Origin: a virus
Lineage: Duplodnaviria > Caudoviricetes
IMG/VR virus record: IMGVR_UViG_3300033069_001774
Span: 37,921-101,920 of that record
Reading direction: 5' to 3' (one strand)
Length of the DNA stretch: 64,000 nucleotides
Positions within the stretch are counted from its first letter, which is position 1. Every line of letters starts with the position of its first letter. Below, piece after piece: positions 27,337-32,409 of this stretch. Under the pieces are notes generated by a model. The model was not told where the DNA came from. It searched no databases and was given only the letters and a program-made list of their open reading frames with translations. Position numbers and translations under genes: made by a program.

Positions 27337-29768
27337 GCTACCGGGGCATCCAGTAGTGGCATGTCCCGACCGTAATGATTGCGGAACAGCTCCATGCAGG
27401 AGTGCGCATCCATCTCGAATTTAATGTCTGGATGTACACGCAAATCTTCAACGAGTGTGCGCAGCTCCAGCTGGAGTGAGATCATGTCGAGCACATCGAC
27501 GAACTTGGACGCGTCGATAGTGATCTTCTGTGCTGCGAAATTATAACGGCACAGGTCAGGCAGCTCCGTGTGTGGGATCAATTTGAGCCACTTCTCCACC
27601 CACGCGTATGGCTGAATGCTGAGAGGCATATCCTGACCGTAATGGTGCTCTAAGAACAAGTGCCCCGTCACAGCCAGCCCGTTGCTGTAAAGCACACTAG
27701 GCTGATGCGTTGCAGGTTTGGATGTGGCCGACATCAGCGTCTCGCACACCCGCGGCAGAATGCGTTGCAGAACTCCGGCCGCGCGCTCCAATTCTTCGTG
27801 TGAGTGTTGTTTGCTCACGTAGCGCCCAGCAGAGGAGAGCACAAAGTAGGGCTCGCGCACAGCGGTCAGGTTACGCACGACGGACGCTGTGGTCCACGCA
27901 GGGTAAAATCGCAATGCGGGGTTGCTGCGCTCCACGCGGGACAAGGGGCGTATTTGGCCCAGCCCGCGAAACAAACCATCCAGCAAGGCCATGCTGCGTT
28001 CGTCATGCCGCAGCTGCACACACTGTAGGTCCTGGTGTCCATGTGCGCGGACAACGACACCGATGATCATCTGCACGAACGTGGCAAGCTCCGGGTCGAG
28101 ATCTCCAGCGATGTTGCGCAGCTCCGGCGCCGCCTCGTAGCAATCCAGCGTTTGCACCTCCGGATGGAACGGCATGACTTTGCGACTCAGCCCTCGGTCC
28201 ATAGTCACCCGCCAGCCTGGCGCATAGAACCCCTTGCGCTGCAGATCCCAACCCAGGAAGGGAAGACCCTCTTCGGAGGGGAGCCTGGGGACTTGGCGGC
28301 GCAGATGGAACGCCACGTTACGGAACTGCCCGTGATCGCGCAGCATGGGCACCGCGGTGCTGCCTTTGACCGCCGCCACCACTTGTATGTGGTCTTGAAG
28401 CTCGCGCGGGGAATCCAGCATACGCCCCGGCAAAATGGTCTCGAGCACTTGATTCTCGATGTGGATGGTCGCCGTGTGGTGCAGCGGCACGGTGTCGCCG
28501 AAGCTGATATTCTTTTGCAGCTGCAGTGTGAAGTTGCTGATAAGCTCGGGGTGCCCCGCGCCGCGCCGCACTTTGTAGCCATCTGGTGTTTCCAATAGGC
28601 AGGTTCTCTCCGAGCGATAGACTTCCACGTCGTACATGGCGCCAGACAGCTGCTCGGCCGCACCAGCAAACCCTGCACTTTTGAAGCGCGCAAGCAGCTG
28701 GCTCTTGAGCAGCCCCTGCGGATTGAAAGATCCGAGCAGTGTGATCCCCGAGGAATTCAGCCGACCGTTGCGCAAATGCGCTTTCAGTTCGCGAAACATG
28801 AACGCATCAAAATCCAGCGTGACATTCTCCGGCAAGCAGAAGACCTGGGTCTGCGGAAAGATACGCTGCAGGTGCACGACGTTCGCCGGTGTCGGCTCAA
28901 GCTTGCTGTCGTAAACACAGTGCACATTGTCCATGGTGCTGGCCATGGAGGCCAGCTCATTGCCAGCGCGGCCAAAGAGGTATGCCATGCTGGTGCTGTT
29001 GGGTGCGTTCACCCGCCATGCAGAGTTCTGCACCGCAGCGCCGATGACTTCCGGGTGCAGGTATATGGCGCTCGTGATGACGCCTTGGCGCCATGCGCCA
29101 GCAAACGCAACGTCGAAAGGTTGCAGGTCGATACGCGCGCGCCAAGTCTTGCTCTGCAAATCGATCAAACTGAGACTGACCAACTCGTGCGGGTGTGTGA
29201 AATATGGAATGATCAACAGCGCTCTACCTTTAGGCAAAGGGGGATACGCCACCTGCGAGCGTTTCAGGATCGCCTCCAGTGCCTGCACTTCCAGCGCTGA
29301 CGCGGCGAAGATGAGATTGCGACAGCTGTCACGATGCGTGCCGAAGCGCTCCAGATTGGCGAGCAATGCTGCCTTGTCCGCCGACACATCAGGACCGTTC
29401 AGCGCCACGAGGTAGTCGAGCAAACGACGCCGTTGTCGCACTTCCCGGGCATACTGGCTGGCAAAGTTCTCGGGCGTAGTTTCTGTCTGCAGATTGGTAC
29501 GCTCAGGGAAAAGCTTCTGCACGCGCGCCGCGCCGGCCAGCAGCGTGCGTGGTGTGGTGCAGCCTGTGGCCAGCTCGCAGACGGATCCCGTGAGCAACGT
29601 GCAGCGATCGTTCAGGCACAGGAAGCTGGATGGCATGACCCACATACCGGAGGAGCAATACGGGCAGGTGATCATGTAGCGCCCATGGTCTCGGCGCACA
29701 GGCAAGCCCAGGCGTTCGACCAGTTCCAGGGGCTTGATCTGACTTTCAATAGCGTGGGTGAGCAGCAT
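27330..29768 (-). CDS. Primase/primase-helicase-like protein, apparently degenerate
   Basis: N-terminal Zn ribbon 'LVERLGL...TCPYC...FLCLNDRC'; TOPRIM-like strands lacking EG/DxD; DUF927-like 'ELISNF...FLGWD'; start set at ATG 29768. Confidence 0.5.
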   Translation of the reverse strand: MLLTHAIESQIKPLELVERLGLPVRRDHGRYMITCPYCSSGMWVMPSSFLCLNDRCTLLTGSVCELATGCTTPRTLLAGAARVQKLFPERTNLQTETTPENFASQYAREVRQRRRLLDYLVALNGPDVSADKAALLANLERFGTHRDSCRNLIFAASALEVQALEAILKRSQVAYPPLPKGRALLIIPYFTHPHELVSLSLIDLQSKTWRARIDLQPFDVAFAGAWRQGVITSAIYLHPEVIGAAVQNSAWRVNAPNSTSMAYLFGRAGNELASMASTMDNVHCVYDSKLEPTPANVVHLQRIFPQTQVFCLPENVTLDFDAFMFRELKAHLRNGRLNSSGITLLGSFNPQGLLKSQLLARFKSAGFAGAAEQLSGAMYDVEVYRSERTCLLETPDGYKVRRGAGHPELISNFTLQLQKNISFGDTVPLHHTATIHIENQVLETILPGRMLDSPRELQDHIQVVAAVKGSTAVPMLRDHGQFRNVAFHLRRQVPRLPSEEGLPFLGWDLQRKGFYAPGWRVTMDRGLSRKVMPFHPEVQTLDCYEAAPELRNIAGDLDPELATFVQMIIGVVVRAHGHQDLQCVQLRHDERSMALLDGLFRGLGQIRPLSRVERSNPALRFYPAWTTASVVRNLTAVREPYFVLSSAGRYVSKQHSHEELERAAGVLQRILPRVCETLMSATSKPATHQPSVLYSNGLAVTGHLFLEHHYGQDMPLSIQPYAWVEKWLKLIPHTELPDLCRYNFAAQKITIDASKFVDVLDMISLQLELRTLVEDLRVHPDIKFEMDAHSCMELFRNHYGRDMPLLDAPVAQ

Positions 29769-29853
29769 CGGTGTGGGTGTATAGATTTGCCACCGTCTGG
29801 GGGTGGGGTCAAGTCCCCCTGCAATTCGCCCCTGAAACGCGCTATAAGTAATT

Positions 29854-30521
29854 GTGAACCCCCTCAAAAGGGCTGTCACAGCATTGTGCCTCGAATCATT
29901 TTCTTCGAAGCGCAATGCTGACCACGAACAGCCACCGAGCTTACACTCGTAGGCGTACACGGAAACCGCAGCTTCGCTTGCTGTATAGGTCCGTAGTGCG
30001 CAGGCTTCCTTCGGTGGGTCTATTCGTGAGCAGCGCCCGTCTCGTGCGCCTGCAGCGAATACGGCAAAGTAACGTGCGTCCTGTGCGGCGCAGCAGCAGC
30101 ACACGAAGCAGCAGCGGGTGAAACCGCTGCCGATGTATGCGCTACCGTGGCGGCAACAAAGCGGAAGCCTAGTGCCTGCATCTACTCAACTGCTGATGCA
30201 AAGTGCAGGAACACGAACAACAAGCCGACGACAAGATAAAGAACAGACGGTGGCCTGTGCGCGCCGCGAGTTCGTCGAGACAAGTGACGTAAGCGCGTCG
30301 CATGGCCCCGCCCGTCGTTTTGGCAGCGACGTAAGCGGGTCAAGTAACACGGTGCATTCCGTGCGCTGCCTTAGTGGTTGGGATCTGCAGAATCCAACCG
30401 CTCAAGTTTACACAATGTGCGCCGTGGCGGCACGTCCGCCTAAGTTCCCGAAGGGTGAAAGCCTGCGGTGCGCTCCATTTCCCGGCTAGCCGGCGGCCAT
30501 GCTCTGAGCCGTAATACAGAG
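29854..30521 (+). ncRNA. Candidate large structured non-coding RNA (~650 nt)
   Basis: No convincing ORF; many hairpins and a long-range closing stem (30300-30307/30495-30502); TATAAG at 29843. Confidence 0.45.
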
Positions 30522-30539
30522 AGGACAAGAAAGGCGCAT

Positions 30540-30632
30540 ATGATCATCCTCCCAAACGGACTCGTAATTCTCTGGAACGGCCTCGTAGTCGGCCAGAAAG
30601 AATATCGCGAAATCCTTGAGTCCCGTCGATAA
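30540..30632 (+). CDS. 30-aa peptide MIILPNGLVILWNGLVVGQKEYREILESRR
   Basis: AAGG/GAGGA upstream; below the ORF-track cutoff; followed by 14-bp hairpin. Confidence 0.4.
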   Translation: MIILPNGLVILWNGLVVGQKEYREILESRR

Positions 30633-30644
30633 CGACGGACACCC

Positions 30645-30683
30645 GTGCCCTGAGCAGCGTCCCGTTGGAGCTGCTCAGGGCAC
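30645..30683 (+). terminator. 14-bp perfect hairpin (terminator/processing signal; no U-tract)
   Basis: GTGCCCTGAGCAGC / GCTGCTCAGGGCAC. Confidence 0.45.
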
Positions 30684-30763
30684 CACAAATTTCAGGGTAA
30701 CCACTCCCAAGTAAGGTAAAAAATACACCGCAAGGTCAAACGCAGGAAGAGTGCGTAAAGGAC

Positions 30764-31234
30764 ATGAACGAGAACAGTCTCTTGGAATTAAATAAGCTGG
30801 CATCCAATCCACCAGCAGCGATTACGCACAACACCATCCTGATGAGCGCAGTAGGACTCCAGGATAGCAGACAAAATTTGCTGCGTATGGACCTGGCGGT
30901 GCAGTTGAACACCAACGGCGCCTTTGACATCGTTGGTGGGGCGCACGCTATGTGCGAGGTACGTAGCACGCGGAACTTCGTGGCAGTAGCGCTGGTTGGC
31001 GACGGTCCTGTGTACCGCCTTCGCATCATGCTTGTGCATGGTCGTTGCGAGGTGTTCATAGGCGTACCCGAGCTGCGAGGCAGCAGCGGCGTTGTGCAAA
31101 AACCAATCGTCGGATCTGGGCGGTTGGCTAACACGTTGGTAGAAAGCAGGCTTGACCTTAGCGCGGTGCGTTTCAACGACGCCAAGCATCAGCGCCTGTG
31201 GCTTGCAGCCCACGTCGAAAACGTCGCCGCGTAA
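30764..31234 (+). CDS. Hypothetical protein
   Basis: AAGGAC directly before ATG; 156 aa. Confidence 0.5.
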   Translation: MNENSLLELNKLASNPPAAITHNTILMSAVGLQDSRQNLLRMDLAVQLNTNGAFDIVGGAHAMCEVRSTRNFVAVALVGDGPVYRLRIMLVHGRCEVFIGVPELRGSSGVVQKPIVGSGRLANTLVESRLDLSAVRFNDAKHQRLWLAAHVENVAA

Positions 31235-31288
31235 AAGCGCGACCCCACCAGCAAGTGGTTAAACTACCGCATGGGTGTAACGCCCAGA

Positions 31289-31339
31289 CCCTTTCGGACG
31301 GTAGACGTCCAAAGCGCTCGCTCGGCGCAACCAAGAGCA
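31289..31339 (+). promoter_or_regulatory. Structured leader motif, copy 1
   Basis: CCCTTTC-GGACG-GTAGA-CGTCC-A..15-nt hairpin-AACCAAGAGCA. Confidence 0.55.
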
Positions 31340-31352
31340 CCCCGCAATACAC

Positions 31353-31610
31353 ATGGCCCGCCCCGAATACCAAACCCGCGTCCTCGTCGAAAAAACCGAA
31401 CTGGACGAAAAACGTCAGAAGCTGCAGGGCTTCATCGACGGTGACAAGTTCGCCGAAGTCGACGCCGATGAACAGGACCGCCTGGAGCGCCAGAGCGCTA
31501 TCATGCAGGACTACAGCGACGTCCTCGAAGAGCGCATCACGGCCTTCCCGCCAGAAGATGCCGCTCCTGAAGCTGCCCCTGAAGCTGCCCCTGAAGCAGA
31601 GCCAGCGTAA
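31353..31610 (+). CDS. crAss001_48-like small helical protein
   Basis: 'YQTRVLVEKTELDEKRQKLQGFI...F..VD..EQDRLERQ...MQDYSDVLEERI'. Confidence 0.75.
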   Translation: MARPEYQTRVLVEKTELDEKRQKLQGFIDGDKFAEVDADEQDRLERQSAIMQDYSDVLEERITAFPPEDAAPEAAPEAAPEAEPA

Positions 31611-31658
31611 CCCTACGTGGCCCGCTGCGCTAGTGCGCCTAGACGCAGCGGGCTGCAC

Positions 31659-31708
31659 CCCTTTCGGACGGAATACGTCCACCCGCTGGCCCGGCGGAAC
31701 CAAGGGCA
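31659..31708 (+). promoter_or_regulatory. Structured leader motif, copy 2
   Basis: CCCTTTC-GGACG-GAATA-CGTCC-A.15-nt hairpin-AACCAAGGGCA. Confidence 0.55.
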
Positions 31709-31728
31709 AGGACAAGAACATCACTACT

Positions 31729-32409
31729 ATGAAACACATCAAGACCCTCGGCATCTACGCCGTCAAAGGCCTCATCCTCGCAGCGTTTGCTTTCTGCTTC
31801 CTGCTGCTGTTCATGGACGCCCCAGCCGCAGAGCCCATGGCCCTGCAACCGCCCCCATCTGTTTCTGCGGCCATCACCGCAGCAGAAGGCAAAGCCGCAG
31901 CCGCGGTGATGTCAGGTAAACTGGCGGACGCCAAAGCCTGGGCTGAAGTTGCCATGCAGCTTCGCGCAGGGCAGTACCTGGCACCCTTCGGCGACATCGC
32001 CGGGGACTTCGCCGGACAGATCAAAAACATCCGCAGCTTCATCGGGGCTGCTTCGGATGTGGAAGCGATGAAGCCAGTGGACAGCTGGTACAACAATCGC
32101 TTCAGCACGGCGGCAATGAATGCCGTGTTCATCAAGAATGATCCTGCAGCTCTGAAGCTGGCCCTGTCGCAAGAAGCGACATGGAGTGCCATGCGTCAGG
32201 CGTTTCAGTTCAGCGAGCACGAGAAGAAGATCCCGCTGGCGGCGGCCGATTACCAGGCGCTCTACGTCTGGGTGAGCAACGGCTGCTGGGGTGAACTGGA
32301 CAGCAACAAGGCGCGCGAAGTCGCAAGCCTGCAAGAAGTGCAAGCGGCGATCGCGCCGTTCCGTCCGGGCCTTGCGCCTGCCATCCCCAAGGTAGTGGGC
32401 ACCAAGTAA
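31729..32409 (+). CDS. Membrane-anchored/exported protein
   Basis: MKHIKTLGIYAVKGLILAAFAFCFLLLFMDAPAA hydrophobic N-terminus; the upstream part of the 403-aa track ORF is likely spurious. Confidence 0.6.
   Translation: MKHIKTLGIYAVKGLILAAFAFCFLLLFMDAPAAEPMALQPPPSVSAAITAAEGKAAAAVMSGKLADAKAWAEVAMQLRAGQYLAPFGDIAGDFAGQIKNIRSFIGAASDVEAMKPVDSWYNNRFSTAAMNAVFIKNDPAALKLALSQEATWSAMRQAFQFSEHEKKIPLAAADYQALYVWVSNGCWGELDSNKAREVASLQEVQAAIAPFRPGLAPAIPKVVGTK

Follow-up and report, generated by a model that had tools for sequence, protein, structure and literature searches.

To our knowledge, few bacterial or phage RNAs longer than ~400 nt have complex conserved folds, and each such class so far (OLE, GOLLD, ROOL and HEARO/omega RNA) is structurally or mechanistically unusual. 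ROOL and GOLLD are large ornate RNAs that are often found in phages and prophages, and they self-assemble. Other phage RNAs serve in counter-defence. RNA anti-CRISPRs, pseudo-ToxI and decoy tRNAs are accessory non-coding cargo in strings of early or counter-defence genes, and they mimic a recognisable host RNA, i.e., a CRISPR repeat, ToxI or a tRNA.

Here we describe an element in the genome of an uncultivated phage that probably functions at the RNA level, as a new family of large structured RNA carried in an exchangeable cassette (29856–30410, + strand; all positions are those of the window, the whole 64,000-nt stretch of DNA that was analysed). The element resembles ROOL (RF03087) and GOLLD (RF01998) in its size class (~550–800 nt), in its multi-domain secondary structure and in the combination of invariant loops and junctions with covarying stems. 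Like them it is phage-borne, patchily distributed and apparently dispensable. However, it matches neither covariance model, even at E up to 10, and is thus not a ROOL or GOLLD member. The window has no tRNA genes for it to lie beside, and all known copies of the element come from a single uncultivated phage lineage, compared with hundreds of genomes for ROOL and GOLLD. As in RNA-based counter-defence, the element is accessory non-coding cargo, with a Sequestin-family gene in the same gene string, but we detected no mimicry of a host RNA in the ARAGORN and Rfam scans.

Two further systems invite comparison. The ColE1 RNA II pre-primer is likewise a structured RNA of ~550 nt with a sigma-70 promoter near replication functions. 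The element differs from it in having no Rfam match, in being dispensable in relatives with the same primase-helicase and in showing no sign of an antisense RNA I-type partner. By analogy, the first two hairpins of the element (H1 and H2), which directly follow a conserved promoter and are kept whatever cassette comes next, may be likened to HK022 put-type and other promoter-proximal leaders, a likeness limited to the first ~65 nt, the other ~490 nt being without counterpart. A survey of IMG/VR in the literature (PMC10690425) listed only candidates that were 29–151 nt long and present in at least three IMG/VR regions. Our pattern scans and protein searches found no other IMG/VR relative of the element.

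The locus and its relatives

The window comprises bases 37921–101920 of a 101,920-base IMG/VR virus record that is judged ~50% complete. The source phage has a genome of ~200 kb, and a contig that is >90% related to the window is 205 kb in length. The terminase of the source phage is only ~22% identical to those of the nearest isolated phages. Twelve public runs from several studies, labelled as freshwater, wastewater or marine plankton, contain at least half of the sampled words of 29780–30760.

Searching with the DNA of the element yielded little. There was no blastn match among 50,697 phage records, exact patterns from the conserved blocks had zero matches in viral contigs, and a first pattern scan of metagenomes also gave zero matches. 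A second metagenome pattern recovered one true relative (L016, on the same contig as L014), as well as four matches that lack similarity otherwise (L017–L020) and that we regard as chance. The scan of genome contigs gave one chance match, within a coding region of a Gammaproteobacteria MAG. No relatives were found when IMG/VR was searched with the primase-helicase and terminase sequences. Because the DNA searches and viral-contig scans were empty, relatives were sought via the flanking proteins. The left neighbour protein has two close relatives in a set of 5.8 billion proteins and 247 by exhaustive HMMER search, and the contigs fetched for relatives of this protein make up our comparative set.

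Two of these contigs (L004 and L022) are identical to the window and carry the element at full length. Further full-length copies are present in L023, which is 98% identical to the window, and in L003, where the neighbouring protein is 86% identical and the element 66–73% identical, without 30409–30478. L023 has 20 differences from the window over 29700–30693; 13 of them are in or beside the element, all within 30265–30428. The copy is partial in L012–L016, a group that includes the 205-kb genome and has a neighbouring protein >90% identical to that of the window. These contigs retain the promoter, H1 and H2 (to 29929) and the 3′ domain 30199–30410 (94% identical), and have 1.58 kb in place of 29930–30198. 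The replacement encodes ORFs of 110 and 69 aa and an IS1-like DDE transposase (PF03400, E 4e-8). The transposase gene (L012:4383–5267, 282–294 aa; also in L013–L015) thus takes the place of the middle of the RNA element, and no terminal inverted repeats were found when we looked for them around the gene of L012. The L012 group was found in several samples despite the loss of 29930–30198, which indicates that the role of the element is dispensable.

The element is absent from the other relatives. L005 is near-identical to the window rightward of 30478 and has an unrelated 80-aa ORF to the left. In the 57% lineage (L002 and L011), the neighbouring gene is inverted and runs into a homolog of the 156-aa gene. 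In detail, the primase-helicase gene of these contigs (L002:8001–10307 and L011:813–3275) is inverted relative to the tail-fibre module and abuts the 156-aa gene homolog, with only ~300 nt between them. The 37–40% lineage (L006 and L009) has the same divergent layout and only the promoter in common with the window, the ~400 nt after it being unrelated. The slot after the promoter in L006 (4521–5000, − strand of the locus) holds an uncalled 45-aa ORF and a terminator-like hairpin. The ORF of this 39%-identity relative has a hydrophobic stretch that is membrane-spanning in appearance.

Table 1. Features of the element and of its surroundings, with positions in the window
Feature	Position	Strand	Remarks
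Primase-helicase gene, 812 aa	27330–29768	−	Divergent neighbour; family without a Pfam model
Promoter block and two hairpins	29819–29920	+	Common to all close relatives
Sigma-70-like promoter	29819–29848	+	−35 CTGCAA (29819–29824), 18-nt spacer, −10 TATAAG (29843–29848)
Hairpin H1	29861–29872	+	Promoter-proximal
Hairpin H2	29879–29920	+	Promoter-proximal; 16 bp
Direct repeat GACCACGAACA	29920–29930	+	11 nt; partner GAACACGAACA at 30209–30219
5′ core domain	29921–30062	+	Nested helices around a 54-nt block, then hairpin 30022–30060
Central arm	30062–30228	+	Long stacked helix leading to a three-way junction
3′ domain	30229–30372	+	Four hairpins; conserved loops UUUUGGCAG and YAAG
Terminal hairpin	30373–30410	+	12–13 bp, UGCA loop; then CAAGUUU (CCAGUUU in L003)
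Window-lineage spacer	30411–30477	+	Absent from L003; replaced in L012
Downstream module	30478–30632	+	62-nt leader and 30-aa ORF; L005 near-identical from 30478, unrelated leftward
30-aa ORF	30540–30632	+	Real gene; differences from L003 at third codon positions
Sequestin-family gene, 85 aa	31353–31610	+	PF21825, Pfam E 4.4e-19

Fold, selection and strand

An earlier note on this DNA, made from the sequence alone, had described a gap without a credible gene. We trained a log-odds scan of codon usage on 19 long window ORFs; it gives a clear signal for the flanking genes and bore out the gap for 29772–30539. From 29772 to ~30720, the coding signal is absent in every frame except for the 30-aa ORF. 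The left neighbour gene ends at 29768, and not at the GTG (30104) with which the ORF list extends its frame. The window and L003 have ORFs in common only where their nucleotides are identical, because indels break the frames every 30–150 nt.

Scanning the whole window with the Rfam 15 models (cmscan, gathering scores) gave 0 matches, and a scan of 29700–30800 at E up to 10 returned only four spurious miRNA models, far below thresholds. There was no covariance-model match to GOLLD, ROOL, OLE, HEARO, raiA or other large Rfam RNAs, nor any Rfam match to group I/II introns, RNase P RNA, tmRNA, 6S RNA or tRNA, and ARAGORN identified 0 genes. These results agree with the earlier observation that no tRNA or tmRNA signature is visible. 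The region had been placed “in the size class of GOLLD/ROOL/MISL or new”; given that no Rfam family matched, it is new, and membership in GOLLD or ROOL falls away.

The region from 29854 to 30521 folds better than its dinucleotide shuffles, the comparison that had been proposed as a check (z = −3.47 on the + strand and −3.11 on the − strand). For 29855–30410, the values are −4.08 (+) and −4.64 (−). We folded the window and L003 sequences independently, domain by domain, and obtained the same architecture with different stem sequences (Table 1). In both, H1 and H2 are followed by the nested helices that form the 5′ core, then by the long central arm, and finally by the 3′ domain, whose four hairpins are closed by the terminal hairpin. 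Several helices keep their position and length in both and have quite different sequences.

H2 has a different stem sequence in L003, and shows U-A to C-G and U-G to C-G changes in L012. As H1 and H2 precede the 110-aa ORF in L012, they belong to the promoter module. The 54-nt block in the 5′ core differs from L003 by two transitions only, and the helices of this domain contain compensatory changes from A-U to G-C (29955–63/29990–99) and from U-A to C-G (30022–27/30055–60). The central arm includes a variable hairpin (30111–30130) and an invariant 12-nt loop, GGCGGCAACAAA (30149–30160). Three of its stems read GCAGCGG/CCGCUGC, UCCUGUGC/GUGCAGGA and GCAGCAGCAG/CUGCUGAUGC in the window, versus AUCUGGU/ACCAGAU, AGGCGC/GUGCCU and GCACCAAGUC/GGCUUGGAGC in L003. 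Window, L003 and L012 share the consensus of the 3′ domain, in which a single position can have as many as three pair types, and the changes in L023 preserve the pairing of this domain. The terminal hairpin has three different stem sequences (window, L003 and L012/L023), all of them paired.

Some of the pairings first proposed are part of this picture and others are not. The stems 29879–89/29910–20 and GCAGCGG-GTGAAA-CCGCTGC (30111–30130) are present, and GACGTAAGCG does occur twice, at 30286 and 30328. Helices that covary between the window and L003 take the place of the pairing of CCTGCA (30175) with TGCAGG (30204): the comparison pairs 30170–82 with 30132–44 and 30203–10 with 30079–86. The stem thought to close a multi-branch domain, GCATGGCC (30300) with GGCCATGC (30495), joins two separable modules: its 3′ arm lies in the module that starts at 30478, and L005 has that module without the 5′ arm. 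The 3′ boundary at 30521 also has to be moved, as the homologous unit ends near 30410 and 30409–30478 is absent from L003. We checked ACACGAACAA and found that it is not a genome-wide repeat; enrichment of the CAAG/AACA motif was mild and was dropped.

At the 4-fold sites of the neighbouring gene, the window and L003 are 43% identical, which is near saturation, while the protein is 86% identical. The element is 66% identical over 562 columns, with unchanged runs of up to 34 nt. This excess of conservation over the 4-fold level means that purifying selection acts on the element although it encodes no protein. RNAalifold on the MAFFT alignment gave −168.6 kcal/mol for the + strand and −154.8 for the − strand. 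Relative to column shuffles, which retain the conservation pattern, the energy z was −8.0 (+) and −4.7 (−), and the z of the covariation term was 4.25 (+) and 1.73 (−). In the + strand consensus, both sides have changed in 29 of 144 pairs, compared with 14.5 ± 2.9 in shuffles and 1–5 with slid partners, numbers that lean in favour of the structure because it was derived from the same two-sequence alignment on which it was scored. Distinct sequences number only 3–4, and of the three full-length copies two are identical over the first 410 nt. Our own sequence-plus-structure pairwise aligner performed worse than MAFFT in the 3′ domain, and was therefore left out of the counts.

More independent tests come from L023 and from a variant in the RNA libraries (see below), neither of which was used to derive the structure. 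Pairing on the + strand survives all nine stem substitutions in L023 (two double changes, one wobble-to-Watson-Crick and four Watson-Crick-to-G-U), of which four would be A-C mismatches on the − strand. In the variant from runs X17 and X18, the + strand likewise stays paired at 4/4 stem changes in the central arm, and three of these break pairing on the − strand. The central-arm helices have −70.4 kcal/mol on the + strand versus −59.0 when mirrored on the − strand, i.e., they are ~11 kcal/mol weaker there. As a single sequence, the window folds as well in antisense as in sense and so cannot tell which strand matters; on this point the earlier argument from G-U pairs is not confirmed, and it is the comparative data that support the + strand assignment. 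The + strand z is −4.08 for the window and −3.66 for L003, and the antisense of L003 folds no better than chance (z = −1.38). Altogether, the stem changes, being compensatory or G-U-compatible, favour the + over the − strand.

Promoter, modules and candidate explanations

The TATAAG at 29843–29848, from which the gap had been described, is part of a conserved block. Five lineages (window, L003, L012, L006 and L009) retain GCGYTATAnnTAATTG with (C/G)(T/C)GCAA 18 nt upstream of it, even though L006 and L009 have unrelated downstream sequence and primase-helicases of only 37–40% identity. By consensus match, this block reads as a rightward sigma-70-type promoter, with a predicted RNA start at about 29855–29858.

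Contigs from three metatranscriptome runs (X15, X17 and X18) match the element at 29867–30017, 30137–30286, 29920–30067, 30094–30337 and 30005–30232. One of them is from a relative in which the central arm has been replaced, with 157 other bases versus the 159 of the window, which echoes the variable-arm pattern of L003. Within 28500–32000, the RNA-library contigs lie only on 29867–30337 and 30474–30665, besides short pieces of low identity; the uncovered flanking genes were not counted as evidence. These records are assembled contigs that may contain DNA and carry no strand, end or level information, so they are consistent with expression of the element, short of proof. Along with conservation, paired changes and alignment folding, they support the reading of the region as a large structured RNA.

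The real unit is shorter than the 668 nt first proposed, at about 29856–30410 on the + strand (~555 nt, ends approximate). The terminal hairpin may be the 3′ end or a weak terminator. Its stem (30373–30402) is strong and covaries, but there are just three U in the tail CAAGUUUACA, and the hairpin was not picked up by a terminator scan, so a role in termination is only inferred. At the position of the spacer that follows in the window, L012 has 308 other bases with a 63-aa ORF. Part of the spacer (30422–30432) repeats the CCGTGGCGGCA of 30145–30155, which makes up the 5′ half of the central arm's invariant loop region.

The two copies of the 11-nt direct repeat, GACCACGAACA and GAACACGAACA, bracket exactly the segment replaced in L012 (29930–30198), which suggests cassette exchange through short-homology recombination. 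As natural variants lack or disrupt the element, it is accessory, and our reading is that it is an exchangeable, non-essential cassette in an early-gene slot that holds small ORFs in relatives. Non-coding cassettes can thus fill the same exchangeable early slot as small protein genes.

We considered three other explanations. The main rival is a long cis-acting 5′ leader that stays attached to the mRNA and acts on the downstream early operon through stability, antitermination or translation. We found no convincing terminator in 30410–30540 and no obvious second promoter in 30411–30539, and the promoter with H1/H2 heads protein-coding cassettes in L012, which makes this position a 5′ UTR in relatives. 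A leader would be expected to stay with its genes, however, and constant linkage to the 30-aa ORF was not found: this ORF and its 62-nt leader lie behind an unrelated 80-aa ORF in L005, and other ORFs intervene in L012. With such different upstream cassettes, the element is not tied to the genes that it would regulate. Moreover, 555 nt, four domains and invariant loops are far beyond the needs of known leaders, and we consider this explanation unlikely. The narrower proposal of a leader for the 30-aa peptide, made in the earlier note, is weakened by L005, which has the ORF without the element. An origin of replication is improbable. It would act at the DNA level, as a primase-helicase loading region with single-strand hairpins or with ColE1-RNAII-like or T4-type transcript priming. 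The adjoining gene has a predicted DnaG-like primase and SaPI-Rep/Cch-like helicase fold, initiators of this kind often adjoin their origins, and even the distant relatives L006 and L009 keep a gap of ~500 nt upstream of the primase-helicase gene. Yet no AT-rich unwinding region is present (G+C 0.58 versus ~0.59 for the genome), and conserved iterons are lacking, the short direct repeats being two-copy only and not kept in L003. Where only one side of a stem has changed, the change fits G-U pairing on just one of the two strands. The P0003 lineage, in which the primase-helicase gene is inverted, has no element, and the L012 group has exchanged 29930–30198 for its 1.58-kb insert while keeping a primase-helicase that is >90% identical. 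Disruption or absence next to so similar a protein also counts against the origin alternative as it had been raised before.

That the region is a functionless, decaying remnant of a mobile or recombined cassette, its hairpins incidental, is very improbable. The slot is a recombination hot spot: L012 has an IS1-like transposase there, the cargo differs in L005, L006 and L009, and short direct repeats mark the swap points. A decaying sequence, however, would not be conserved well above the 4-fold-site level with invariant runs of 34 nt, would not have compensatory changes far more numerous than those in controls, and would not give rise to a 98%-identical variant (L023) that alters stems only in pair-preserving ways.

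Our preferred explanation is an RNA-level element. Under this explanation, host RNA polymerase would read an RNA of ~555 nt from the sigma-70-like promoter, and the RNA would fold into the two 5′ hairpins, the 5′ core, the long central arm and the 3′ domain ending in the strong hairpin. The folded RNA would then act, either as a released molecule or while still forming the 5′ end of the early transcript. Our guess is that the invariant single-stranded loops of this RNA are binding sites for a host or phage protein; candidates are GGCGGCAACAAA, UUCGCUU with AACC/AUAGG, UUUUGGCAG and GACGACAAGAUAAA. The gene context leads us to guess further that the RNA is a decoy or scaffold with a part in counter-defence or in taking over the host. 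Such a loop-mediated protein-binding mechanism is a tentative proposal. Bolder, and somewhat doubtful, is the idea of a previously undescribed class of large ornate phage RNA that works in trans as a decoy or scaffold for counter-defence or host takeover and possibly self-assembles like ROOL and GOLLD. If true, a swappable non-coding cassette would sit in the same early operon as a Sequestin-type sponge for an immune signal. The conserved promoter, the clear modular boundary, the natural knock-outs (L012 and L005) and the candidate counter-defence gene offer handles on the question of whether large folded phage RNAs serve as accessory weapons.

Neighbouring genes

The gene to the left had been labelled primase-like. 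Its 812-aa product has no Pfam, PHROG or PDB match in sequence and profile searches, and only the fold search gave it a name, so the label holds at the fold level. Foldseek with the AlphaFold model (pLDDT 87.6) identified the zinc-binding and polymerase domains of Aquifex DnaG (2au3, E 9e-7), the SaPIbov1 Rep helicase (8tch, E 3e-7) and the SCCmec Cch helicase (5dgk). The predicted fold joins a DnaG-like primase, with zinc ribbon and TOPRIM, to a SaPI-Rep/Cch-like helicase in one protein. Four N-terminal cysteines are conserved, and a library of 1.84 billion representative proteins contains ~250 relatives.

To the right, the element is followed by a string of genes that comprises the 30-aa ORF, a 156-aa ORF, the Sequestin-family gene and further genes. 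The Sequestin-family gene is ~0.95 kb downstream of the element, and L023 has the order element, 30-aa ORF, Sequestin-family gene. Members of this family (PF21825) have been found experimentally to sequester 3′cADPR and to block type I Thoeris (bioRxiv 10.1101/2025.07.12.664507). With this gene in the same string, the element heads a string that includes at least one likely counter-defence gene.

The 30-aa ORF is hydrophobic (MIILPNGLVILWNGLVVGQKEY...) and evolves under purifying selection. Window, L003, L005, L013/L014 and L023 all have it, regardless of the upstream sequence. Directly after the ORF is a hairpin of 12–13 bp (30646–30682, + strand), which may be a terminator or a processing site, with compensatory U-A to C-G changes in L005 (30651/30677) and L023 (30646/30682). 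The 85-aa Sequestin-family ORF overlaps a long GTG-started ORF (31198–32409) whose real start is probably at 31558 (283 aa). Farther along the + strand (40292–43994), we noted genes for a Mre11/SbcD-like phosphoesterase (388 aa) and then a Rad50/SbcC-like ATPase (837 aa).
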